Source: Octopus vulgaris (taxonomy: Eukaryota). Taken from it: a stretch of 64,000 nt of DNA. Position numbers and translations under genes: made by a program. The DNA lies in assembly GCA_951406725.2 (NCBI GenBank), contig OX597815.1:121334001-121398000 (forward strand). Reading direction: 5' to 3'. Position 1 is the stretch's first letter, and each line of letters starts with the position of its first letter. The notes below the pieces were generated by a model, which saw only the letters and a program-made list of their open reading frames with translations, was not told the DNA's origin and made no database searches. Of this stretch, positions 1,512 through 57,731 are shown in pieces.

Positions 1512-2645
1512 TCAAGGACATTTAAAAAAAAATTTAATCCATGGCACATACATATTTAGTGAATCCACGACTAGCCCTTGTAGGTACATCCCCTTTAAGT
1601 GATTAGCATAAGTCGGAGCAACTTTTGTCCTCACTGCAATCCCATTGCCATTGAAGTAAAAAGAATGGTTTTCCAGAATAAATTTTAATCCTTCAGCAAT
1701 GAAAATCTTTTCAGTTCTATCTGGAATTTCGTGAGGTAATTTCTGAGGCCAGAAAGTTATTGCCTCTAGTCTATATTGGCATGGGATTGTGGTAGAGAGG
1801 TTTACCACATCAAAAGATACAATAGTGGTATCATTGTTTATCGATTTTGGGAGGTAGTTTAACAGGTCCAGGTTGTCGCTTATGAGACTTGTATGTATTT
1901 TAAAATAGGTTTCAGTAATATATCTAAAAAGTTACCGAGTCTGTGTGTTTCACAGTTCAGGCTTGCTATGATTGGTCTAAATTTAAGGTCAATGCAACAT
2001 TGTATGTTTATGCAACTTGAAGTTGGTTCTTTACATGCATTCATAACAGTTTGATTCTTTTAAGAGACTGTAGAAGTAGCTTGTCTTGCAATCAAAATGA
2101 GTTAGGTAGTCACATGCTTTGTTTGTTAAACCACCTTTTTGATGTCTGTGAATGAGTGTGTCCATTTTAATCATTATCTTTGATATTTGGTAATTATGTA
2201 CCTTTTCATTGCGGGTCATATCTTGTAATATAGATAGTATATCTCCTTGTAGTGTTCAGTATCCACAATAACTATAACACTCCCCTTATCTGCTTCCTTA
2301 ATTATAATGTCTTTATAGATTTTCAGTTCATGTATAATATCCCATTCCTTTCAACTGATATTGTGCTTGATTTAAGGGTGTGGAAGTTCTTTGTAAGTGA
2401 AGGTAGATATAAAATCGCAAAATTTATCTAAAGCTTTATTCTTACCTTTTGTAGAATTGTATTTGCTCTTGTTTCTTACAATTGGTTCGTCCCTGTTTTC
2501 TTTATCATACAATTCCTCTGTTAGGTGTAGTTTTCTGCAGAACTGTGAAATATCATTTGGTATTTCATTGAAGTTAGGGTGCTGTAGTGCTGGGATAAAT
2601 TTTAGGCCTTTTGACAGTCAATCGTATCAGCCTTCACTTGTGATG
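1512..2645 (-). mobile_element. Penelope-like element reverse transcriptase remnant (pseudogenised)
   Basis: ORFs 1512-1808 and 2031-2219 plus flanks give SFDVVNLSTTIP, FILENHSFYFNG and GIAVRTKVAPTYAN (PLE GxAMGTKxAPxYAN motif), and ADKG and RPII-like motifs upstream. Many stops and frameshifts. Confidence 0.8.
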
Positions 2646-28276: not shown

Positions 28277-28430
28277 GGTGGTTGTCTACTCCTTATGCAG
28301 AGTTTGACCACCTCCTGTACCTACACCTTAGAACCATCATGGCATCTGATGTGGCTTTTTAAACCAGACAAAGTTTTGAAAAGACACTCACATAGATTGC
28401 ATATCCAAGTTGGACCACCAAGAGCTGTGT
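28275..28430 (-). mobile_element. RTE-type LINE extreme 3' end with C2H2-like motif
   Basis: Minus strand WICNLCECLFKTLSGLKSHIRCH followed by a short UTR. Confidence 0.6.
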
Positions 28431-28496
28431 GTATGTATGCAGTGTATGTGATTGTGCATGTGTGTATGCGAGTATATATGTGTGTGTGCATATATA

Positions 28497-29495
28497 TACC
28501 TGTTGTTGATTTGGGGCCCTAATCTGTCTATGAGAATAGCCTCCTTTATTCTTAAATTTCTTTCTTTGGCCTCAATTGTGACTGTTATGCTTTTGTCAGT
28601 GTTCTGGCATCTGTCAAGATGTTTTCTGAAGGAGGAGGCTCTCATGTTCAGGTGTTCTTTGATGCAAATGTGTAACGGCCTTGTTGTGTTACCCACATAG
28701 AGCTTGTTGCATTTGTTACATTGTATTCTATACACAACATTTATCCATTGGCGTAAGTCTGCATCACGAATGGGATAGTTTGCTATTGTGCATTGATTGC
28801 TGTCCCTAACCTGTTTCCTTACGAGGTGTCTTCTCAGAGAAGTGCCGGAGTGGGCTAGTTGTATGTCTAGTCCTTTCCTTCTTATGGCTCTTCGGATGGC
28901 TGTAGTTATCCTCTCGCTAAAATGGAGTATTTCAAAGAAGTATGCATTGCTGGGTTTTTTGTGCATTTGGCATGTTGTTCATTTTGGGTACTTAAGCCGA
29001 TTTATAATGGCTATAGGGTACCCATTGGTTTTTAATATTTCTAGGAAGTATATAGTGTGGGCCACCTTATCCTCTGTCCTGCTGCATTTGCTCTGGATGC
29101 GTGCAAGTTCATTTCTGGCATATCCTAATTTGGCATCAAGTGGAAGTGCTAAACTGTAGTGGACAAATATATCTCTACTGGCTGCTTTCCTGTAGAACTC
29201 AGTATGGATTTCTCCTTCTTCCATTATTTTCAGTTGGAAGTCAAGTAGTGATAGTGATCCAGTGTTTTCAGGATGTTCTATAGTGAACTTTATGTTCATG
29301 TCCATGTTGTTGAACATCGTGAATATTCTGTCAGCCTCTTCACGGGAAGGATGTGAGTATGAGGATGTCATCTACGTACCTGGTGAATAAAGCGCATGAG
29401 CGGCAGATGTTGAGTGCTCGACGTTCCTGATGGTTCATACAGGTGATGGCTAGTAGGCCCGAGAGATTGGATCCCATGGGGAGACCTGTTGTCCA
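28497..29495 (-). mobile_element. PLE fragment (Penelope/Poseidon-like): RT C-terminal half plus GIY-YIG
   Basis: GLPMGSNLSGLLA..FTRYVDDI, IKFTIEHPENTGSLSLLD..FYRK, VVYRIQCNKCNKLYVGNTTRPL..IKEH..KEAILI. Frameshifted. Confidence 0.9.
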
Positions 29496-35337: not shown

Positions 35338-35391
<54 letters not shown>

Positions 35392-35757
35392 AATGAGATA
35401 GGGGTTGAAAATTCAACCCACCATGGGATAATATATATCCAATATACTGCTAGATAGGTACCCAACAAAATTAATACATAGATGTTAAAAATTGTCAAGC
35501 AATCAGTTCATCTATTGTATTAAATGGGTAAAGGTAATAATATTACCGTAAATTAATACTACAAAATTAGAGAATGGAGAAACATACTTAAATCAGTAAA
35601 ACATCAACTATCCGATGATACTCAATCCATACTTTAATACACCATTACATATGAGTAAAGGCAATATATAAAATGAAATGAGATATACAGTAATAGTAAA
35701 AGTAAAAAGATAAAGAGATATAAGTAAAAAATTTCAAATATAATATGCAAATAAATC

Positions 35758-35873
35758 AAAACTGACAGCTGTTTCGGCAGTGAGGACAGTCATACCTCAT
35801 TTAACCTATAAGCCATAAAGGCAGGTATAAATGAGGCATTAACAAAGATGCCCCACGGCCTCTTCAGAGAATT
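35758..35873 (-). ncRNA. Type I hammerhead ribozyme (inverted-arm copy)
   Basis: Reverse complement of 43731-43846. Confidence 0.8.
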
Positions 35874-36208
35874 AAATTAAATTTGTTATAATAGTGAAAA
35901 ATATTATATAATCATATACATATAAATATAAAAATATAAAAATGTAAAATATAAAAACTTATACATCATAATGCTACACTTGTATAATATAATACACATT
36001 TGTACAAAAAGGAAGGTAAACAGAACAAAATAAAACAAAATATATAACAGTGTATATATAATATTAATAAGTACCGATATCATACATATTTAGCTAATAG
36101 TTTTTTTTATAAAAAAAAGGGCTAACACATATGGAGATGAAAAATAATAATTAAATCCGTGGTACAGTTCATAAAATTCTAAAGCTATAAAAGTTAATAA
36201 AAATTACT

Positions 36209-36265
<57 letters not shown>

Positions 36266-37977
36266 TAAAAAATAATAAAAATAGATACAGTTAAGTTATC
36301 ACCAAGTCCATCCTTTCAAGATCGAAATAACTATGAGTTAAGAAATGCTGACCACTAGGTAAAGAAAATTTAGATTAATTCGATTGGCTATTGGTTTGAA
36401 ATTTAAATCACAAAAGAAAATTATACGGTTGGTTAGTCAGGGAACGCCAATATTCACACACGCATCTACAGATCAATCGCACATACACACATAGTTATAT
36501 GTATATACATACACTTATACATATACATAATCATAAGCAACAACTAACACTTAGATAAACAAAAGGGAAGCAACTATGCTAACATTTAAGTCCTTCAAAA
36601 TTATAACTGAGCCTCAATAACAAAAAAAGAACCATCCATGCATTCTATAAAATATTTAATTAAGATATAAATGTATTTTTAAATATCAGTATGTTACTAA
36701 TTCAGATAATTATTTCATGGGTAACTTAAAATTTATAACACCGGTTTGTTGCAGAGTAAACATACGGTTGTTAGGTTTATCGTAAGTTTGTTATGATTTA
36801 AAGTACGCTAAATTATAAAATATAAAATATAAAATATATTAATTTAGATATTATAAATAAGTCACTTATTAACTTAATAAATATAGTGCCAAATATACCA
36901 GTTTAGGCAATAAAAATAGAGGGGAAGTATTAATGTAAACGCTTATGAGAACATCACAGAAATTTTAAATAAATTTTATATTATAAAGACTTAAGATGAA
37001 AAGAGATAAAATAAATAAAAAGGAATAAATACGAAGGAATAAATACGGTTATACACATAATTATAAGTACAAACTAGTATATATGTATTCATATATTATT
37101 AAAATTAAATAAAAATAAATGATAGATATGTATGTATAAAACTACACCAGTATAAGTAAATAAGTAAAGAATAAATAGGTAACAAATTAAATGACTTGAT
37201 ATGTATGTAAACATCCACACTTAAATAGGCAAATAAATAAATAAATAGAAGACTAGATGCAAATATTGATAATATTACAATAAAATGGGAAATAAATAAA
37301 AATAAATAAAGTGAATATATATATTTTATATTGTTGAAAGTAAATATGTATGGAAGGATAGTTTAAAGTACAGATCCAGAGGACTATAGATATAAACTAA
37401 ATATATGAGGCTGGTAATAATTATAAAGCAAAATGCATGTAAATGAGAAAATGAAAAAAATGAAAAAGGTTTATCAGTGAATAGCATAAGATACAAATTA
37501 AGGTGAGTACAAAAAGACCAAATATATAATAAAAACCTTCCAAATCAGCACATACAAAAAACCTATAATCTCAACCTAAACCCACCAAACTCACAAAAGG
37601 CTCTCATATATTACATATTATACAATATCATTACATTATCCAGAGCTAGGTATCTAACCAAGATATACATATATACTATGCAATATACTATGCAATATTG
37701 GAAAACTTCAAAAATCACACATTACAAGGCAAATACCAAAATGAATATGTTATTTTATGTCATATTGCATTTCTCTTAAAAAACAAACAAAAACCCACAT
37801 ACAAAAACCAAGAAACCAATAATACTAGACACATCCATTAGTTATTATACAAATGTAGCTATAAAAATTATAAAATTATGAAATTTATAAATTGTATACT
37901 TTAGAATTATAGAAGACCACAGGTATATTTAGTTAAAGAAGGGAATTAAAAAATTATAATAGTGGAAGTGCTAAGTT

Positions 37978-39022
37978 CTATTTGAATCTAGAAAAGGTGA
38001 ACGGTAGCCTATGAATACAAAAGAAGTTTTTCTCATTAATGTTGTTAATAATTTGCCGACCCGCTTTAATAATGAAGAAAATTTCATTAATACATAGAGA
38101 GCATTTTTTATTTTTTCCATTATACACAGGTGCTGAAGTTAGTATTTTCCAGTTTAATCTAAAATCTAAGTTCTTACTTTTAAGTTCCCAAATATATGCA
38201 CTTAGCCCTGTAGAGTACATTCTATTTTTATTCCTAAAAGTATATCTATGATAATTCCATCTTTGTTTTATGCTATTCATAGTTGCCCCGATATACACCC
38301 TACTACTCAATTGTGTATCTACAGTGCATTGGTAAACTACCTCCTTCCTGAGGCATTGATTACCAAATACACATTTATTTTTATTTCTGCAATTACAAAG
38401 ATTAACAGAATGAGGAAATCTAAGATTGGACACCACCCCTATACTACTATTCACATTATAAGTGTTACAATTGTTATCATCATCCAAACCCAAAATCAAC
38501 GAATGAGTTAATTCCACATTATCGGCTATATTCCTATCACTAGTACTAGTATTGGTAGTAGTGGTATGATCTATTACATTTATATTATCTCTGACAGGTA
38601 TGGTGCACTCATTATTAGTAAGGAGGTTGCTCCCATTTGTTCCAAGAAAATTTCTATTCCTATTATTAATGAAGAGGGGCAAGTTTTCCTGGTCTAAATT
38701 CAATTTTCTATCCTTATAGAAGTGATCCAGTTTCTTGTTATTAAAAGAGGAGATGATGGTGGCTAGATTATGAGTAATGCTATATCCCACTCTAACAGTA
38801 CCGTTGTTAATTAAAGGACTAAATTTATTCCTATCCTTACCAAAATGCCTAAAAATAATATTATGCAAAGCTCTCACTATGTTTGTTTTAATCTGCATTG
38901 CATACGGGATAATCAACCAAAGAGTATCCTTATCAGAATTAGGATTGCCTATAGAATTAATGTTATTTGTAAAAATCCTATTCGTAGACCAACTCATAGG
39001 ATTACTATTCTTACCACTGTCA
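37978..39022 (-). pseudogene. Inverted duplicate of the PLE linker plus GIY-YIG coding segment
   Basis: Identical to the 40420-41613 protein from DSGKNSNP onward. The ORF-track N-terminus (up to 39090) is antisense of the RT start. Confidence 0.9.
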
Positions 39023-41613
39023 AAGTCTCCTCCACCAAATATACATCTAGACAATTTTGAACAAGAACTATGGGAGACTGTAAAAAACATAAAATTTAGA
39101 AATCATCCTTTAAGATATAACCCGCACAATATTAATTTTAATTAGAACTCTCAAAGGTAAGAGCGGCATTCTAACACATTCTGACAAAACTAACAACATC
39201 TACAACATTGACATTACTGCATATCATGATCTTCTACACAAGGAAATAACCAAGAAATACAAAGTAGTACCTTCTAGTACACTTAGAAAACTGAACCTGG
39301 AGATCAGAGAAATCATATTTGACTACTACCTAGAAGAAAAAACGGAACCCTACACCCCATCCAGACCGAGAATTACACTAAAGGATCATAAAGAGAATTT
39401 TCTTGGAAACACACAGGTCAGATTAATTTGCCCCACTAAATCTGACTTAGGCAGACTAAGTAAACTCATTCTAGATAAATATCTACCCACCATCCGCAAT
39501 AAAATCAAACTAAACCTTTGGAAGAATACTCAGGGTGCTTTGGATTGGTTTTCTGCCATTAAGGTCTGTGACAGTAACAACTTTAGCTATAATAGAAATA
39601 AATTTATACAATTCGATATACAGAATTATTACACTTCAATTAACCCTATTATATTAAATAAGTCCTTAATTTTTGCTAGAAAACACACTAAATTAAGTAT
39701 GGGGGAGATTAAGGTTATACTAACAGCCAGGAAAACTTTAATAGAGTTTGATAATAAACTTTGGGCTAGAAAGGACACACCCAACTTGTTCGATATCACA
39801 ATGGGATCGCCGGACTCAGCGGAGGTGACTGATCTAGTTGGGATGTATCTATTAGATAACTTTAGTAGGGAATTCCCTGAATTAAAAGGCGGATTATACA
39901 GGGATGACGCCTTATTTTGTGTTAGGAATACATCAAATAGGAGATTAGATCTTCTGAAAAAAAGAATAAACAAATTTTTTAAAAGCTTCGGCCTATCCAT
40001 TATCATTGAAAGTGAAAATTATTCTGCTAATTATTTAGATGTTAATTGTAACATTACTAATGGTTTACATGAACCCTATATTAAACCTAATTCTAACCTA
40101 ATATACATTAACCGTTCTAGTAATCACCCCCTCAAATTAAAAATGCACTAGTGCGTAGCATTAGTCAAAGAATTTCTAGTTTATCCTCAAACGAGGAAAT
40201 TTTTAACAAACACTGTGATAGATACAATGCAGCATTACTTAAGGCAGGATATAAAAGTAAGATTTGGTTTATACCTAAGGGGAACCCCCTAATGGAGGTA
40301 GAACTATCAAGAACAACACAAATAGATTTAGGATAATCAACAATATACATAAGAATAGTAAAAACAGAATATATGATAACACCTATAATAAATGTAGAAG
40401 TGACGTTAACCTTGGAAAGGTGAACGGTAGCTCAAATAGATCTAAACATACGAGTAGTAGTAGTAATATTAATAATAATATACGAATTAAAACTTATGGT
40501 AGACATGATAATGGTAAAGTTTACTTGCGCAATAACCATGGTAATATTGATATAGATAGACATAACAATGACAGTGGTAAGAATAGTAATCCTATGAGTT
40601 GGTCTACGAATAGGATTTTTACAAATAACATTAATTCTATAGGCAATCCTAATTCTGATAAGGATACTCTTTGGTTGATTATCCCGTATGCAATGCAGAT
40701 TAAAACAAACATAGTGAGAGCTTTGCATAATATTATTTTTAGGCATTTTGGTAAGGATAGGAATAAATTTAGTCCTTTAATTAACAACGGTACTGTTAGA
40801 GTGGGATATAGCATTACTCATAATCTAGCCACCATCATCTCCTCTTTTAATAACAAGAAACTGGATCACTTCTATAAGGATAGAAAATTGAATTTAGACC
40901 AGGAAAACTTGCCCCTCTTCATTAATAATAGGAATAGAAATTTTCTTGGAACAAATGGGAGCAACCTCCTTACTAATAATGAGTGCACCATACCTGTCAG
41001 AGATAATATAAATGTAATAGATCATACCACTACTACCAATACTAGTACTAGTGATAGGAATATAGCCGATAATGTGGAATTAACTCATTCGTTGATTTTG
41101 GGTTTGGATGATGATAACAATTGTAACACTTATAATGTGAATAGTAGTATAGGGGTGGTGTCCAATCTTAGATTTCCTCATTCTGTTAATCTTTGTAATT
41201 GCAGAAATAAAAATAAATGTGTATTTGGTAATCAATGCCTCAGGAAGGAGGTAGTTTACCAATGCACTGTAGATACACAATTGAGTAGTAGAGTGTATAT
41301 CGGGGCAACTATGAATAGCATAAAACAAAGATGGAATTATCATAGATATACTTTTAGGAATAAAAATAGAATGTACTCTACAGGGCTAAGTGCATATATT
41401 TGGGAACTTAAAAGTAAGAACTTAGATTTTAGATTAAACTGGAAAATACTAACTTCAGCACCTGTGTATAATGGAAAAAATAAAAAATGCTCTCTATGTA
41501 TTAATGAAATTTTCTTCATTATTAAAGCGGGTCGGCAAATTATTAACAACATTAATGAGAAAAACTTCTTTTGTATTCATAGGCTACCGTTCACCTTTTC
41601 TAGATTCAAATAG
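39023..41613 (+). CDS. PLE polyprotein (N-terminally truncated): RT, Asn-rich linker and GIY-YIG endonuclease, with three apparent frameshifts
   Basis: SDKTNNIY, RITLKDHKENF..VRLICP, FIQFDIQNYYTSI, FDITMGSPDSAEVTDLVG, GLYRDD, NYLDV, SNHP, CNCRNKNKC, VVY..VYIG..KQRWNYH, CSLCINE. Frame changes near 39130, 40130 and 40285. Confidence 0.9.
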
Positions 41614-43322
41614 AACTTAGCACTTCCACTATTATCAATTTTTTAATTCCCTTCTTTAACTAAATATACCTGTGGTCTTCTATAATTCTAAAGTATACAA
41701 TTTATAAATTTCATAATTTTATAATTTTTATAGCTACATTTGTATAATAACTAATTGGATGTGTCTAGTATTATTGGTTTCTTGGTTTTTGTATGTGGGT
41801 TTTTGTTTGCTTTTTTAAGAGAAATGCAATATGACATAAAATAACATATTCATTTTGGTATTTGCCTTGTAATGTGTGATTTTTGAAGTTTTCCAATATT
41901 GCATAGTATATTGCATAGTATATATGTATATCTTGGTTAGATACCTAGCTCTGGATAATGTAATGATATTGTATAATATGTAATATATGAGAGCCTTTTG
42001 TGAGTTTGGTGGGTTTAGGTTGAGATTATGGTTTTTTGTATGTGCTGATTTGGAAGGTTTTTATTATATATTTGGTCTTTTTGTACTCACCTTAATTTGT
42101 ATCTTATGCTATTCACTGATAAACCTTTTTCATTTTTTTCATTTTCTCATTTACATGCATTTTGCTTTATAATTATTACCAGCCTCATATATTTAGTTTA
42201 TATCTATAGTCCTCTGGATCTGTACTTTAAACTATCCTTCCATACATATTTACTTTCAACAATATAAAATATATATATTCACTTTATTTATTTTTATTTA
42301 TTTCCCATTTTATTGTAATATTATCAATATTTGCATCTAGTCTTCTATTTATTTATTTATTTGCCTATTTAAGTGTGATGTTTACATACATATCAAGTCA
42401 TCTAATTTGTTACCTATTTATTCTTTACTTATTTACTTATACTGGTGTAGTTTTATACATACATATCTATCATTTATTTTTATTTAATTTTAATAATATA
42501 TGAATACATATATACTAGTTTGTACTTATAATTATGTGTATAACCGTATTTATTCCTTCGTATTTATTCCTTTTTATTTATTTTATCTCTTTTCATCTTA
42601 AGTCTTTATAATATAAAATTTATTTAAAATTTCTGTGATGTTCTCATAAGCGTTTACATTAATACTTCCCCTTATATTTTTATTGCCTAAACTGGTATAT
42701 TTTGGCACTATATTTATTAAGTTAATAAGTGACTTATTTATAATATTTAAATTAATATATATTTTATATTTTATATTTTATAATTTAGCGTACTTAAAAT
42801 CATAACAAACTTACGATAAACCTAACAACCGTATGTTTACTCTGCAACAAACCGGTGTTATAAATTTTAAGTTACCCATGAAATAATTATCTGAATTAGT
42901 AACATACTGATATTTAAAAATATATTTATATCTTAATTAAATATTTTATAGAATGCATGGATGGTTCTTTTTTTGTTATTGAGGCTCAGTTATAATTTTG
43001 AAGGACTAAATGTTAGCATAGTTGCTTCCCTTTTGTTTATCTAAGTGCTAGTTGTTGCTTGTGATTATGTATGTGTATAAGTGTATGTATATACATATAA
43101 CTATGTGTGTATGTGCGATTGATCTGTAGATGCGTGTGTGAATATTGGCGTTCCCTGACTAACCAACCGTATAATTTTCTTTTGTGATTTAAATTTCAAA
43201 CCAATAGCCAATCGAATTAATCTAAATTTTCTTTACCTAGTGGTCAGCATTTCTTAACTCATAGTTATTTCGATCTTGAAAGGATGGACTTGGTGCTAAC
43301 TTAACTGTATCTATTTTTATTA

Positions 43323-43392
<70 letters not shown>

Positions 43393-43730
43393 AGTAATTT
43401 TTATTAACTTTTATAGCTTTAGAATTTTATGAACTGTACCACGGATTTAATTATTATTTTTTTCATCTCCATATGTGTTAGCCCTTTTTTTTTTAAAAAA
43501 AACTATTAGCTAAATATGTATAATATCGGTACTTATTAATATTAATATATACACTGTTATATATTTTGTTTTATTTTGTTCTGTTTACCTTCCTTTTTGT
43601 ACAAATGTGTATTATATTATATAAGTGTAGCATTATGATGTATAAGTTTTTATATTTTACATTTTTATATTTTTATATTTATATGTATATGATTATATAA
43701 TATTTTTCACTATTATAACAAATTTAATTT

Positions 43731-43846
43731 AATTCTCTGAAGAGGCCGTGGGGCATCTTTGTTAATGCCTCATTTATACCTGCCTTTATGGCTTATAGGT
43801 TAAATGAGGTATGACTGTCCTCACTGCCGAAACAGCTGTCAGTTTT
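43731..43846 (+). ncRNA. Type I hammerhead ribozyme with extended stem II in the PLE 3' UTR
   Basis: CTGAAGA (43737), ggccgtggggca...tgtcctcactgcc, GAAA (43829), palindromic ACAGCTGT, GUC triplet (43838-43840). Stem I is imperfect. Confidence 0.8.
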
Positions 43847-44069
43847 GATTTATTTGCATATTATATTTGAAATTTTTTACTTATATCTCTTTATCTTTTT
43901 ACTTTTACTATTACTGTATATCTCATTTCATTTTATATATTGCCTTTACTCATATGTAATGGTGTATTAAAGTATGGATTGAGTATCATCAGATAGTTGA
44001 TGTTTTACTGATTTAAGTATGTTTCTCCATTCTCTAATTTTGTATTATATATATATATATATATGTGTG

Positions 44070-47875: not shown

Positions 47876-48310
47876 GCATGGCTGTGTGGTAATAAGATTG
47901 CTTCCCAATCATATAGTTCTAGATTCAGTCCCACCAACTTAGCAGTTCAGCAAAAGAGACTGACAGAATAAGTACCAGGCTTAAAAAAAGTAAGTACTAG
48001 GGACTATTCATTTAACTAAAAATTCTTCAAGGTGGTGCCCCAGATTATTTATAACAAAAGGGATTATTGAAGATTATGAGATATTTAGCAATTCTTATAT
48101 TCTTTTACTTGTTTCGGTCATTTGACTGTAGCCATGCTGGAGCACCACCTTTAGTCGAATGAATCAACCCCAGGACTTATTCTTTGTAAGCCTTCTACTT
48201 ATTCTATTGGTTCCTTTTGTTGAACCACTAAGTTATGGGGCCGTAAACATACCAACATCAGTTATCAAGCAATGGTTGGGGGACAATCATAGACACATAG
48301 ACACATAAAC

Positions 48311-48347
<37 letters not shown>

Positions 48348-50847
48348 ACAGGCTTCTTTCAGTTTCCACCTACCAAATCCACTCACAAGGCTTTAGTTGG
48401 CTGGAGGCTATAGTAGAAGACACTTGCCCAAGGTGCTATGTAGTGGGACTGAACCTGGAACCATGTGGTTGGGAAATAAGCTTCTAACCAAACAGCCATG
48501 CCTAGCTGTGTAGCCTAGAGGATACTTTGTTGGGCACACAGTCATGGGTTCAGTTCCTGGATTGAGTGGTGTGTTGAGTCCTTGAGCAAGACACTTCATT
48601 TTATGTTGCTCCAGTCTGATCAACAGAAAAGGAATACCAGCTACATGCTGGCACAGCCATCTATCCTTTCAGCTGTAATATTCATAATGTTCTCAGGCGG
48701 CAAGCTGGCAGAAATGTTAGCATGCCAGGCAAAATGTTTAGTTGTATTTCATCTGTTTTTATGTTCTGAGTACAAGTTCGGCCAAGGTCGGCTTTGCATT
48801 TCATCCATTTGGGGTCAATAAATTAAGTACCAGTTGTGTACTGGGGTTGATCTAATTGACTGGCCCCCTCCCCAAGGTTTTGGGACTTGTGCCTAGAGTA
48901 GAAATGAATATTCTTGATGTTCTGCTGGATCAAGAGTGGGAATACTAAGAGAGTTCTACATCTGCTTGTGACTACACAAGCACTTAAAACAATTAGTGAG
49001 AGTATGGTATACATGTTAGCAAGTTTCACAATGGTTATCCTTTTTCTTTTGTTCATAAGTATGAAGGGTGCAGCGAAGTCCCTCAAACACAAACCAATAG
49101 TCTTATGTGAGGCAACCAATTTCAATGTTGGTGACATTTACGTAAAGTGGACTCAGTGGTGATTCATCTGTCTAAGAGTGTTTGTGACTAGCAGTGACAA
49201 TGATTAAGCATATTACATCCTGAAGGATGAGTGTGAGGGACATGATCAAACTCTAAATATATTAGATTTGGTATAATGAAGATCAGAGAAGGTCTTGTTG
49301 ATAAAAAACTGTCATGGGGCAGTTTTACAGAAAATATCTGATCCAATAAATGTCAGTTCTAAACAAGCAGACCAATTGATCAAAACGTTGTAGCTTTGAC
49401 TATCTAGTTTTTCATTTTATTATTTTCTATTTTTTTGTATATCCAAACTGTTCTTCCTATTTTAAGATGGTAAAGTGTAATTTAAGGGAATATATCTATT
49501 ATTTCTAGCCTGCTGGCTGACTGGATAGAGGGTGTTATTTTGTTTTGTTAAGCAATAATTAGACAACATAGGATTTTCCCCTGTCAGGCAAGTTTAGAAG
49601 CTTGGTTACTGTCAGGGCAACAATATTGGTTTTTACCCAAGTTCTCTAGTGTGAAGGACTGTTGGTTAGTGTATGAGAGACAAGTGTCCATGAGATCTGA
49701 CTCTACAAACTGTACTGATGATTACCATGTATTACAGCAAAAACGTTAGCAATGAATTCTTGCTATTGGTTAAAAGGTGTCTGTTTATGCTGCCTTCATT
49801 CAAAACTATCAGTTGTAATCAATCTGAAGACATACTCCAACAGAAATTAGTTCACAAACTTCCCTTCTCCGATAGCTAAGATGCCAAAATAGTCTCACAT
49901 AGATGATGCTATGACTGCTAATATCTGCTTGGCACATATTGTAGGTTACATTGTAGGGTGCATCTTTCAATGAAGGTTGATATCTAAAAGTTAGGGTTGC
50001 AAACTGCCAGAACAAAATGCTCGGTAGCATTTCATTCATCTTTGCATTCTGAGTTCAAATTCTGTCAAAGTCAACTTTGCCTTTTATTCTTTTGGGGTCG
50101 ATAAAATAAGTACCAGGTGAAAACTGGGCTCAATGTTATCAACTTACTCCCAGCCTCAAACTTACTAGCCTTGCGCCAAAATTTGAAACCAATATTTAAA
50201 AGTTTTATTGTTGATTGTTTGGGTGAAGCACTCGGATGAGAGCTACAGGATTGTCTAAGGTTGACTGCATTTTACAAGAAACAACAAATCCTAAAGTCAA
50301 TGAAAACCTTTATGAAAATAAAAAAAAAGAACTACAATATTCCTTTCACTTGATTTAGTTATTAGACTGTGCCCATGCCCATTACAGAGATGTAAACAAA
50401 CTAACACTGGTTGTCAAGCAGTGGTGAGGGACAAACACACACAAAGACGCATGCACACACACACACACACACACATACGAACAAAGACACAAAGACATAC
50501 ACACACAAAAGCACACACACACACATACAAAGACACAAAAACACACATACAAAGACACAAAAACACACATACAAAGACACACAAAGACACAAACACACAA
50601 AGACATGCACATGCAAAAACACATAAACACACACACACATACATATTCAAGAAGATAAAAATCATCTTAAGATATGAAAATCCAGGAAGTCTGGAGAGAT
50701 CTCATACAAAATGCAAGTTCTCTTACTATTGATTACTTAGTAGTTCACTGTCTGTAGTATGTAAAAATCAAATTACCTAATACAGGAAGTTGATACTACA
50801 TTGTCAATAACATGTCTGTCACATTGAGGTTTTGATATATCTCTGAT

Positions 50848-53610: not shown

Positions 53611-56025
53611 TATTATTATCACATATACCTTGATATTTCAAGTCATTAACCTTATTACTACCAAACCAACCTGAGACCACCCTTAGCTCTATGATACAAA
53701 CATTCCATTTTGAAGTGATCTAAATTAAAATCTTCCATCAAAATGTCATGTTAATTCATATCCCAAACTGCTGCTTGCTTAATAATGATAAATTCATTTT
53801 ACTAAAATCTTCATTATTTTTTAAATTACTTGAAACAATGACAGTCTATTTCAACAGAAATATGGTAACAAAAGAGTTAATGTTTATGAAATTAACACTA
53901 TTTACTACACTAGAGCTAAGAATAAAAAAGCAATTATCTTTTTTATGATTTTTATTGTCAGCCTAAACTCTCAGGACTCATTGCTGCAATTTTGGCCTTA
54001 TAAAAGACTTTCATGACTTTGGTGGGATTTAAAAACCAATAATTAAAAGCAATAAAAGAATTCTTTATTGCACACTATTTTCTACTTCTCAACTAAGTAC
54101 ATTATGTCTTAACCTTATAATTAGCTTTCTAGTTATGACCACATTTTAACTCCCTTCTCCTCCTCTTCCTCATCACCCTAAAGGTTGTTGGTAGCAACAG
54201 CAGCAGCAGTGATGCTACTACTGCCACTACTACCACGGCCACCATAACCACTGTTGTTATCATCACCATCACCAAGTTCACTATCACTATCATCGTTATG
54301 AAATCCTACTATTATTACCAGCATATCACTATCTCTTCCTGTGAGCTCCTTTTTTGTCTTATCTGTTAGATTCTAATTCCTGAAATTTTACTTCACCACT
54401 TCTTCCTGTGTCTTTCTCTGTCTTCTAAAATATGTACCTTCATTTGTCAGCACTCAAGGTTTTTCACCCTTCACTCATTACTCATATGTATTAACAATCC
54501 CAGTATATTCATGTTTCCTATATACTTCAGGTGTTGTTTCAAATGCTCTGTTGCTCACTCTTTCAGCTCCTTTGTGATTCAGTTTTTATTCACTTATAAA
54601 AAAAAAAACTCATTTAGATTACTTTTACACATCCAGTAATTTCTACCAAAGTGATTTCTCTTCAACCTTCATAAGTTTGTTATACTCTACTGTAGCAGGT
54701 CTCTGCCACAGTTTGAGCCCAGACTGTTTTCTTTCAATTAAAAGGTTACCACAAACAAAAACTAAACCTTTTAAAACTGAATGATGTCATGAAATAACTA
54801 ATAAGTGATATCATTATTCAATCAGCCAAAACTCTGACTGTTGTTTAAGAAAAATTTCCTAATTGTAAACCAAAAGGTCCAGTGTTCAAATCAACATATA
54901 GACCTGGTATATCACTACTGCTTCATCAGCATACAACCCCAGACTACTATATGCTTCATACACTCTGCTATTGTTGCTGAACAAGATAATAGCTCTCTAA
55001 ATGTCTTCCTCTTTTGTACACTTATTCTTCACCTTCACTACAATCACCTCCTGCATTAATTATTTCCTCCAGTCCACACTGTAAAGTAGTTGGCATTTGG
55101 AAGGGTATCTAGCTGTAAAAAAAACCATGCCAAAACAGACACTGAAGCTTGGAGCAGACTTCTACCAAGCCAGCTCCTGTTAAACTGTCCAATTCATGCC
55201 AGTATGAAAAGCAAACATTAAATGATGATGAGAGTGATGGCGATGATGATGATCATCATCATGATGATGACGACGACGACGACAATGACGATGATGGCAA
55301 CGATGACGAAAACAATGATGATGGTGATAATGATGATGACGATGATGATGACGAGAGGGAGGAGGGGGAGAAGAGGGAGGAGGAGACAAACTATGGACTA
55401 TATTTCATGGACTGTCTGAATCAGTTATATAGGTTTTTCCCACTGCTGGTGGTTATTATTTCATCAACCATAATATCATATGCGATACCACGGTTCTCCA
55501 TCAATTTGTCAGAAACTCTGCTGCACTTTTCTGTACCTACTGTTTGCATGCAGTGTGTAGTTTGAATTCCATCCTACTCTCTTCTACCTATACATTGAAC
55601 AAAAATCATTTCACAAAGAAAACTGATTTAGCTTTCCAACCACATGGTTTCAGGTTCAGTCCTGTTGTATGGTAACTTCTACTATAGCCCTGAGCTAACC
55701 AAAACCTTATGAATGGATTTGGTAATGGAAACTGAAAGAAGCCTGTCACATGCATATATTTGTATTTGGGTTTTTCTTTTACTTGTTTCAGCCATTTGAC
55801 TGTGGCCATGCTGGAGCACATCCTTTAGTTGAACAAATCAACCCCAGGACTTATTCTTTGTATACCTAGTACTTATTCTGTTGGACACTTTTGCCAAACT
55901 GCTAAGTTATGGAGACGTAAACATACCAACATCAGTTGTCAAGCAATGGTGGAGGGGGACAAACACAGACAAACAAGCATACATACACACACACACATAT
56001 ATATGTGCATACGTATGTATATATG

Positions 56026-56065
<40 letters not shown>

Positions 56066-56084
56066 TACATACATATATATATAA

Positions 56085-56945
56085 AGAGAGAGAAGAATAC
56101 AGTGTACGTTCAAACACAAAAGAGATACCCGAAGAATAGGATATCTGACTCACTAGAAAGAGCAGTTAAAACTCCAAGCCACCAATTGTTGTAATTCCGA
56201 AAGTGATTGAAAAATAAAAATTTTTACCTTAATCCTATACCCTGCAAGGTTTCTGCAGACTTACATACATATTGAAATAAGATAAATTCAGTCTATATCT
56301 GGCACTGCTTCTTCAGTAGGTTGCCAGGATCTAACACATAGACAAGGAGCAATAATAACCCGCCACATGTCTATAGGTTCTAATTTTTCGAATCTATCGT
56401 GCAGATGCAGAACTCAACCAGCACTAAATAAATAAATTGTCAATTTTCTTCCAGAATTAGCCAAAAACCATTTTATCATTAATTAAAATCTTAAGGTAGC
56501 AAGAATATTCATCGAAAAATTCTTAGTTACCAGTGGTCTAGCAAGAAAGAAAAAATTAGTCAATAGACTATATATTATTCAGAGAAGAATACAGTGTACA
56601 TTCAAACACAAAAGAGATACCCAAAGAATAGGATATCTGACTTGTTAGAAAGAGCAGGTTAAAACTCCAAGCCATCATTTGTAATTCGAAAGTGATTGAA
56701 AAATAAAAACTTTTACCTTAATCATAGACCCTGCAAGGTTTCTGCAGAATTACAACAATTGGTGGCTTGGAGTTTTAACTGCTCTTTCTAGCGAGTCAGA
56801 TATCCTATTCTTCGGGTATCTCTTTTGTGTTTGAACGTACACTGTATTCTTCTCTGAATAATATATAGTCTATTGACTAATTTTTTCCTTTTTGCTAGAC
56901 CACTGGTAACTAAGAATTTTTCGATGAATATTCTTGCTATTTTAA
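56085..56945 (-). mobile_element. Retrozyme-like element: ~490 nt unit in partial tandem plus a 5' inverted segment
   Basis: agagaagaatacagtgtac at 56089 and 56581; 56749-56945 is inverted. Full HHR at 56234-56320 (-) and an HHR 3' half at 56723-56748. Flanked by (TA)n inside a SINE. Confidence 0.85.
56234..56320 (-). ncRNA. Type I hammerhead ribozyme
   Basis: ccta-CTGAAGA-agcag..(46 nt)..ctgca-GAAA-CCTTGCAGGG-TA-tagg. Perfect 4-bp stem I, near-palindromic stem III, GUA triplet (GUC in the second copy). Confidence 0.8.
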
Positions 56946-57012
56946 TGATATATATATATATATATATATATATGCATACATATATATATATATGCATACA
57001 TACATACATACA

Positions 57013-57103
<91 letters not shown>

Positions 57104-57114
57104 GCATACATACA

Positions 57115-57147
<33 letters not shown>

Positions 57148-57731
57148 GATGGGCTTCTTTTCAGTTTTCCACTGACAAGACTTTGGTCAGCCCAGGGCTG
57201 TAGTAAAAGATGCTTGCCCACGCAATGGGACTGAACCTGGAACCATGTGATTGGGAAGCAAGCTTCTTCCCTCACTGCCATGAATGAATGCATGTATGTT
57301 TGTTTTGACCTCACGTGATTGTTGTAAATAAATGTCATTCATTTCTAATTGTCTGTGAAACATGTCTAGCCACAGGGAAATATTACTTCGCTTGCAGACA
57401 GGTAAGGGCTGACAACAAGAAGAGCATCCGACCATAGAAAATCTACTTTGATAAACTTCATCCAGACCGTGCAAGCATGGAAAAGTAGACATCAAAGTGG
57501 TGGTGGAGATGGTCGTGGTTGAGGTGGTCGTGGTGGTGGTCATCGTCGTTGTCGTCATCATCATTGTCATCATCATGGTCATGGTGGTGGAGGTGATGGT
57601 GGTGGAGGTGAAGGTGGTGGTGGTGGTGGTCATCGTCGTGGTGGTGGTGGTGGTTGTCGTCATCATCGTTGTCATGGTGGTCGTGGTGGTCGTGGTGACA
57701 GCAATGATGATGGCAGTGGCCAAAACAACAT

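Follow-up and report, generated by a model that had tools for sequence, protein, structure and literature searches.

A two-armed, non-coding hammerhead repeat of the non-LTR retrozyme type in Octopus vulgaris, probably inserted in the manner of Penelope-like elements

The non-LTR retrozymes of metazoans are low-GC, non-coding tandem units with a type I hammerhead ribozyme and a palindromic stem III, dispersed as monomers and short multimers in genomes that also carry autonomous Penelope-like elements (PLEs) (Cervera and de la Pena 2020, PMC7229834; Li, Clavereau and Pollet 2026, 10.64898/2026.07.22.740005; accessible text of both), and they have already been proposed to be non-autonomous PLE derivatives (10.64898/2026.07.22.740005). 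PLE insertions are marked by partial tandems, an inverted truncated copy, a tail on one side only and a bias towards microsatellites (Craig et al. 2021, PMC8557442), and most PLE copies are 5'-truncated (PMC8557442; 10.64898/2026.07.22.740005). In vitro, the protein of an anole PLE cuts and extends both target strands, and two internal start sites on the RNA match the tail (Frangieh et al. 2024, PMC11167929). In the available parts of these sources, the re-insertion of animal retrozymes and the in-vivo cutting of PLE-tied hammerheads stand as open questions (PMC8557442, PMC11167929, PMC7229834, 10.64898/2026.07.22.740005).

The element described here lies in a 64,000-nt stretch of the Octopus vulgaris genome (GCA_951406725.2, contig OX597815.1, forward-strand positions 121,334,001–121,398,000), hereafter the window, whose own numbering is used throughout. 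It is a member of this known class, with all the retrozyme features listed above, and what is added here is a likely footprint of cleavage, a contrast between sister ribozymes and (CT)n at insertion ends. We hold with good confidence that it is an aged copy of a dispersed, protein-free non-LTR retrozyme, likely pasted by a PLE enzyme into (TA)n from both target strands. A preliminary description, made from the letters of the window alone, had also called it retrozyme-like, non-coding and inserted in PLE style, and both the layout of the family and the insertion scar bear this out.

The unit of 489 nt falls within the 51–972 bp range of Li et al. (2026) and is longer than the 170–400 nt circles cloned by Cervera and de la Pena (2020, PMC7229834), from whose retrozymes the family also differs in its 56-nt stem II and in the A·A or C·A at positions 10.1/11.1. 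Li et al. reserve "active" for loci with two complete ribozymes, whereas the window copy has one; nor was a matching PLE pseudo-LTR found among the PLEs compared. With EN+ PLEs (PMC8557442; PMC11167929) the family shares the partial tandems, the inverted 5'-truncated copy, the one-sided tail, the microsatellite targets, two internal start sites and a hammerhead upstream of them, but it has no ORF, and its tail is ~100 nt long instead of 30–40. Two-armed insertions or ends at the cut site are not described in the accessible text of PMC7229834 or 10.64898/2026.07.22.740005, and the word "ribozyme" is absent from the main text of a 2026 octopus repeat annotation (PMC13282606). Our literature search, outside which subscription papers and supplements mostly lay (that of the 2026 preprint may list relatives), found no paper on cephalopod retrozymes.

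Table 1. Coordinates of the insertion, its parts and flanks in the window, and of the sister family loci
Feature	Position	Strand	Remarks
Whole two-armed non-coding hammerhead repeat (non-LTR retrozyme type)	56085..56950	.	Both 3' ends outward into (TA)n
Arm I: unit ~469-489, full unit 1-489, unit 1-146	56089..56747	-	3' end = start zone I
489-nt unit, cut site to cut site, without ORF	56238..56726	-	
Copy A of unit 1-146	56577..56726	-	~7-9 private changes vs copies B and C
Copy B of unit 1-146, terminal part of arm I	56089..56237	-	
Arm II (copy C): unit ~41 to ~253	56747..56950	+	3' end = start zone II
Complete type I hammerhead (predicted)	56234..56320	-	Cut between 56238 and 56237 at GUA
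Truncated upstream hammerhead	56723..56747	-	3' stem II strand, GAAA, stem III, GUC
Two extra CT units past templated UCUCU, arm I end	56085..56088	-	
Left target half, (TA)n/(TATG)n	55993..56084	.	
Right target half, (TA)n/(CATA)n	56951..57147	.	
Left half, host repeat (presumed SINE-like)	55781..56000	.	82% identity to several other window copies
Right half, host repeat (presumed SINE-like)	57141..57300	.	
Sister family loci	L231:1396-1983; L217-L236; L317-L356		

The insertion (Table 1) had been placed within the (TA)n of a repeat that we take to be SINE-like, and its flanks are indeed the two halves of a repeat found whole at 48107–48500, with a short (TA)n in its middle. Arm I contains the 1.35 tandem units first described (56089–56748) and reads through the predicted cut site twice; the folding z of the 489-nt unit is -1.86. 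The arms join in a 2-nt GA overlap and pair as 56491–56663/56773–56945 (94%) and 56089–56197/56747–56855 (99%). Arm II, within which there are small deletions, ends ~100 nt beyond the end of arm I, leaving a PLE-type tail; the inverted arm and tail had been recognised, with the end set at 56945, and we extend it to ~56950. In agreement with the original reading, no ORF above 60 aa, stop to stop, lies wholly inside the element. The insertion had also been judged young, which the data do not support. Its direct repeats, indels aside, disagree at 9 of 145 aligned positions, and among the 40 scored of 1,922 DNA-search candidates the closest other copies are 89–92% identical (92–94% with a more central query). 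The window copy is aged and probably inert.

On the minus strand, two predicted cleavage triplets, GUC (56729–56727) and GUA ending at 56238, lie 489 nt apart, exactly as reported. The downstream hammerhead comprises CCUA (56320–56317), CUGAAGA (56316–56310), GAAA (56253–56250), stem III CCUUGCAGGG (56249–56240), UA and UAGG. It is complete, as claimed, although the "perfect stem I" of the claim amounts beside the core to only 4 bp (CCUA/UAGG). Stem III is a quasi-palindrome, self-complementary if G·U pairs are admitted, as had been observed, and the stem II region spans 56 nt, with A·A at 10.1/11.1. The upstream hammerhead, described as cut off at the inversion junction, does end at ~56747 without a CUGANGA half. 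Its stem I strand is mutated to UAUG, so that a monomer cut at both sites would carry a mismatched stem I; with a single complete ribozyme at the locus, the notion of a monomer delimited by two cleavage sites is not upheld. As only one ribozyme is complete, the locus is probably a dead end. Of the 89 ribozymes whose triplet can be read, GUA is found in the window copy alone, and almost all the others have GUC.

The assignment to the hammerheads rests on motif, folding and covariation: the core, the three stems and the NUH triplet are all present in the unit. Ninety-two ribozymes were collected, and two damaged copies were excluded from the fold count. In the remaining 90, pairing is kept in 95.6% of the cells, the changes being mostly wobble-compatible. 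Between 10 copies of the family and 5 of a sister family, 5 of the 13 core pairs are changed on both sides (cells, not independent events), so the predicted fold appears to be backed by compensatory changes. The motif itself is not due to chance, as the exact ribozyme 23-mer has 79 matches in the genome and its reversed control none. No Rfam hammerhead was found at the gathering threshold over the window, at E<=10 over 56000–57000, or at E<=10 in one family and one sister locus; the long stem II is probably the reason.

In the 82 intact cores the following base is A (58), C (20) or T, so that G10.1-C11.1 is lost, and an A stands directly before GAAA in all 89 readable copies of the family. Mismatches at this position are known in hammerheads, in the form of U·U (PMC3088659; PMC7229834), for example in HHR_Amex2 of the axolotl (PMC7229834). 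The family shares a 4-bp helix I, a larger helix II, an unpaired base after A9 and a palindromic helix III region suited to dimers with the minimal PLE hammerheads (Cervera and de la Pena 2014, PMC4209133), which cut slowly (PMC4209133). As far as the accessible text goes, however, the latter keep G10.1-C11.1 directly before GAAA, whereas in the octopus family another A precedes GAAA and helix III is a full 4 bp long. Relative to the minimum fold, the active fold lies at +8.0 kcal/mol in the window copy and +6.1 to +6.6 kcal/mol in three other family copies, against +2.3 kcal/mol in the sister family. For stem III, the computed energy of a self-duplex is -18.9 kcal/mol, versus -1.7 kcal/mol for a hairpin, which makes dimer pairing through this stem plausible. 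A second palindrome, UCUGCAGA (56252–56259, minus strand; self-duplex -13.1 kcal/mol), coincides in part with stem II and GAAA, so that it might interfere with formation of the active fold.

The sister family, traced from contig sequence of sequencing runs with family-like pieces, is likewise a closed unit, with a spacing of ~453 nt; it is 68–80% identical to the family of the window over the matched stretches and has 133 exact motif matches. Its hammerhead has a 7-bp stem I and a perfect palindrome in stem III, and keeps G10.1-C11.1 in 19 of 20 copies. The two families therefore offer a ready natural comparison of sister ribozymes with and without this pair.

For the family as a whole, 96 non-redundant loci were compiled (duplicates dropped), namely the window's own and others chosen not randomly but by similarity or exact motif, including all 79 ribozyme matches. 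The exact 19-mer of the tail has 250 matches in the genome (control, 0). Corrected for the fraction of copies in which the motif is intact, the exact matches correspond, as a rough estimate, to ~165 arms with the ribozyme and ~570 with the tail. The ends of the family are permuted, without the terminal layout of LTR retrotransposons, and three subfamilies can be distinguished; along its whole length the window copy shows the markers of a single one. Repeats within one locus differ by 4.4–6.4% (9.0% between loci); the family is old. Terminal copies of the unit proved no closer to the majority sequence of the family than internal copies did (private changes, 59 vs 53).

The preliminary description had itself named the unit's being the pseudo-LTR of a longer coding PLE as what would overturn it. 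On this account the unit would be the 5'-truncated end of such an element, made of the pseudo-LTR and a 3' untranslated part, with the ORF elsewhere. All the insertion marks are PLE-like and most PLE copies are 5'-truncated, as this account would have it, and a 2,402-nt contig (from X6, a run guessed to be RNA) matches 147 nt of the unit and then continues into further sequence. Yet in none of the 96 loci, which cover all 79 exact ribozyme matches, does a PLE ORF adjoin the unit. The three protein matches among them (L129, L083, L102) are on the opposite strand or past a microsatellite, and 15 further loci gave a single one, beyond a microsatellite plus another repeat. In 35 arms with a length of one unit or more, the sequence runs back into the same non-coding unit and not into an ORF; one locus (L002) has about three units in tandem, and the sister unit is closed as well. 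Because the arms return to the same unit and no PLE frame continues, the unit is a non-coding repeat closed on itself, rather than one end of a coding element; we consider the coding-PLE origin very improbable.

The retrozyme reading is joined to PLEs by the form of the scar. Two head-to-head arms are present in 52 of the 96 loci, and 118 of 148 3' ends lie next to a microsatellite. These ends fall mainly into two zones, 62 at unit 119–160 and 64 at unit 226–265. Both ends lie in a zone in 41 of the 52 two-armed loci, and in 36 of the 41 there is one end per zone (unit 91–160 and unit 226–265), where 20.5 would be expected (p=4e-7). The sister family has the same two 3'-end zones. In the family, the starts are spread over broad zones, with ends at TA or CT that match the flank; the anole PLE, by contrast, started without homology (PMC11167929). 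The element thus combines a PLE-type scar (partial tandem, inverted copy, tail, microsatellite target) with the absence of an RT and GIY-YIG ORF, and it behaves as PLE insertions do, although it is no autonomous PLE. Such insertions offer countable genomic marks, both of two-strand priming of PLE type at two zones and of cDNA run-off at the cut.

A coding PLE-like insertion at 35388–44048 of the window, also in (TA)n, leaves a scar of the same form. Its 3.48-kb inverted arms are 99% identical, the left one being longer by ~170 nt (the tail), and the insertion is young. It has an RT-like frame (39114–40151, with YRDD) and a GIY-YIG-like frame (40279–41613) with an inverted copy; the RT-like frame had no Pfam or PDB match, and a pattern search found no hammerhead in the insertion. 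Elsewhere the genome carries young 781-aa RT + GIY-YIG frames. When the unit DNA was compared by BLAST with 20 GIY-YIG loci (from 148 listed matches; 6136 candidates), with 9 longer PLE stretches and with the window PLE, no meaningful similarity emerged. As no PLE examined shares DNA with the unit, it is from the insertion scar that we infer the Penelope class of the enzyme.

Several other PLE remains were seen. A broken fragment at 28388–29371 (minus strand) has a GIY-YIG match just below the Pfam cut-off, and another RT-like fragment lies at 1512–1931 (minus strand). At L051–L054 there is a young PLE family with an intact 781-aa RT + GIY-YIG frame and many near-identical matches, in which a second frame of >300 aa precedes and short tandem repeats follow the 781-aa frame.

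The 5' ends were traced in 93 distinct arms with an exact 27-mer (94 genomic matches), a procedure that counts some deletions as ends. Fourteen of the 93 stop at -1 to +2 of the predicted cut, compared with 35 over the other 80 positions between -45 and +40 (p=4e-6). Once an internal deletion among the 14 is discounted, 13 of the 63 arms reaching the site end at it. In a second set, of 69 arms, 3 of 17 stop there (p=0.37 alone; 0 of 11 before loci were added), and in the two sets together 16 of 80 arms reaching the cut stop at it, the rest reading through. An earlier BLAST look at 22 loci selected by their tail had shown no 5' ends at the cut; the anchored tracing of larger sets differed. In the sister family, 7 of the 36 arms reaching its own cut site stop at it (67 arms, p=0.001). 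We regard these pile-ups as the likely footprint of in-vivo cleavage that affected some of the templates, about equally often in the two families. If so, a hammerhead with a 56-nt stem II and without G10.1-C11.1 would cut as well as its canonical sister. Frangieh et al. (PMC11167929, accessible text) report no RNA reads that end at the ribozyme site of their PLE, whereas the genomic 5' ends of the octopus family cluster there. A higher yield of run-off ends from the canonical sister ribozyme was considered after an early count of 5/11 and was dropped when the totals came to 7/36 versus 16/80 (p=1.0).

The pile-up could also be read as an effect of microhomology, with the ribozyme a decayed, non-cutting passenger on an ordinary non-autonomous PLE derivative. 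The unit begins with TAGG, so that TA or TAGGAT microhomology, which blurs several junctions, could inflate the count at the cut, and the second set of arms has no significant pile-up. The loss of G10.1-C11.1, where nearly every copy pairs A or C against A, and the unfavourable active fold would also suit a dead ribozyme. In the accessible reports, moreover, PLE insertion in vitro proceeded unimpaired with mutant ribozymes (PMC11167929), and 8 of 9 Xenopus retrozyme dimers showed no cleavage (10.64898/2026.07.22.740005). The cluster, however, holds 13 ends, against 0–6 at other TA sites (the 6 being at unit 21–24), and the sister family shows the same rate at a site whose first base is C, to which TA microhomology does not apply. 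In two loci (L187, L194) both arms start at the cut, and wobble-compatible and compensatory changes dominate the stems. A passenger of this kind is, in our judgement, unlikely.

If the ribozyme does cut, the insertions could have arisen as follows. Read-through transcription of a source locus would give RNA of more than one unit, of which the ribozyme would cut only a part, probably aided by dimer formation or a protein. A PLE protein would then nick both (TA)n strands, and reverse transcription would start inside the RNA, at unit ~120–160 from one strand and at ~230–260 from the other. About one in five of the cDNAs that reach the cut site would run off there and the others would read through, the two cDNAs being finally joined at their far ends by microhomology.

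The template of the window insertion itself had been taken to be a circular RNA, on the grounds that copying one would produce this layout. An uncleaved linear RNA of several units gives the same layout, and the copies diverge unevenly. Over window unit ~41–146, the private events of copies A, B and C stand at ~9:1:0 (p=0.001), at 7:1:0 in a conservative count (p=0.008) and at 5:1:0 with substitutions only (p=0.054). Copy A is therefore far from the near-identical B and C, which argues against a monomer circle for this insertion. A chimera of two subfamilies was rejected as the source of this divergence, in view of the single set of markers mentioned above. We lean towards an uncleaved linear RNA with two already different units as the template of this insertion, ahead of a monomer circle or jump, which seems rather improbable here. 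In vitro, unprocessed RNA is the dominant PLE substrate (PMC11167929, accessible text).

As a general route, a template made of one self-cleaved monomer deserves more weight, whether it was religated to a ~489-nt circle or copied with a template jump from its 5' to its 3' end, since several observations across the family suit it. The direct repeats of a locus share derived changes as arm pairs do (2.2% and 2.5%, versus 0.8% between loci), which indicates one source per insertion and suits a circle or a uniform tandem. Direct repeats differ by 6.4% and arm pairs by 5.1% (p=0.07), which is compatible with a circle. Some 80% of the arms at the cut read through although cleavage seems to occur; most templates were thus continuous there, whether as uncleaved multimers, religated circles or by a template jump. 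Only 1 of the 96 loci has two complete ribozymes in one arm, which makes multi-unit sources scarce, and the retrozymes of coral, mussel and axolotl accumulate as circles (PMC7229834, accessible text). A monomer would nevertheless give three equal copies at the window locus, where A has diverged, unless B and C were later homogenised by conversion. We place the monomer template somewhat behind its competitor, as a possible explanation.

Contigs from four sequencing runs that are RNA only by our guess match the family in pieces, none of which spans the locus; the joint in them that goes back 489 nt is also expected from a genomic tandem. Four further runs (organisms A, C and D) hold family-like pieces, which cannot date the window insertion.

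The 3' ends at unit 142–150, where the template reads UUCUCU, carry an unbroken (CT)4 or longer in 11 of 19 cases, a count that includes two templated units, and (CT)n in 14 of 19 if interrupted runs are counted by eye. It is found at 0 of 129 other 3' ends of the family, at 13 of 792 unrelated (TA)n ends and at 0 of 48 zone-I ends of the sister family, which lacks the UCUCU stretch. In nine two-armed cases the far flank has no leftover CT. These ends suggest that the PLE reverse transcriptase may stutter in the manner of its relative telomerase, and we would give about even weight to the extra (CT)n being such a stutter at initiation on UCUCU; a seed might instead have grown later by slippage, or (GA)n primers might have been selected and the remainder lost. 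The search of the literature, with most subscription papers and supplements outside its reach, found no report of repeat stutter by a PLE. That the genomic copies record both in-vivo cleavage (~20%, in two sister families) and a telomerase-like PLE stutter that seeds (CT)n is accordingly a tentative proposal, which we hold with less than even confidence.

At L086:1804–2060 (G000:C12), which lies ~250 kb inside the contig end, the unit's own CCCTAA closes an arm, and a few CCCTAA-like telomeric repeats come after it; this single case might reflect priming on a telomeric end or stutter.

The base changes of the family show a small excess of A>G (2.62%) over T>C (1.76%) overall. Among shared changes the counts are 13:9 vs 25:57 (p=0.02; per site p=0.15), and the excess is explained equally well by wobble tolerance in stems as by A-to-I editing. 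At L156:1986–2954, a piece of the unit (~198–261) is repeated several times within a longer local tandem, and on contig C1 two pairs of insertions (L161/L162 and L169/L171) are near-identical including their flanks, apparently as segmental duplications. Two further types of hammerhead were seen: the first, whose stem II measures 59 nt, lies next to a GIY-YIG PLE fragment (L039:445–545, with an inverted copy), and the second is compact and sits within a small inverted element (L052:4660–4745).
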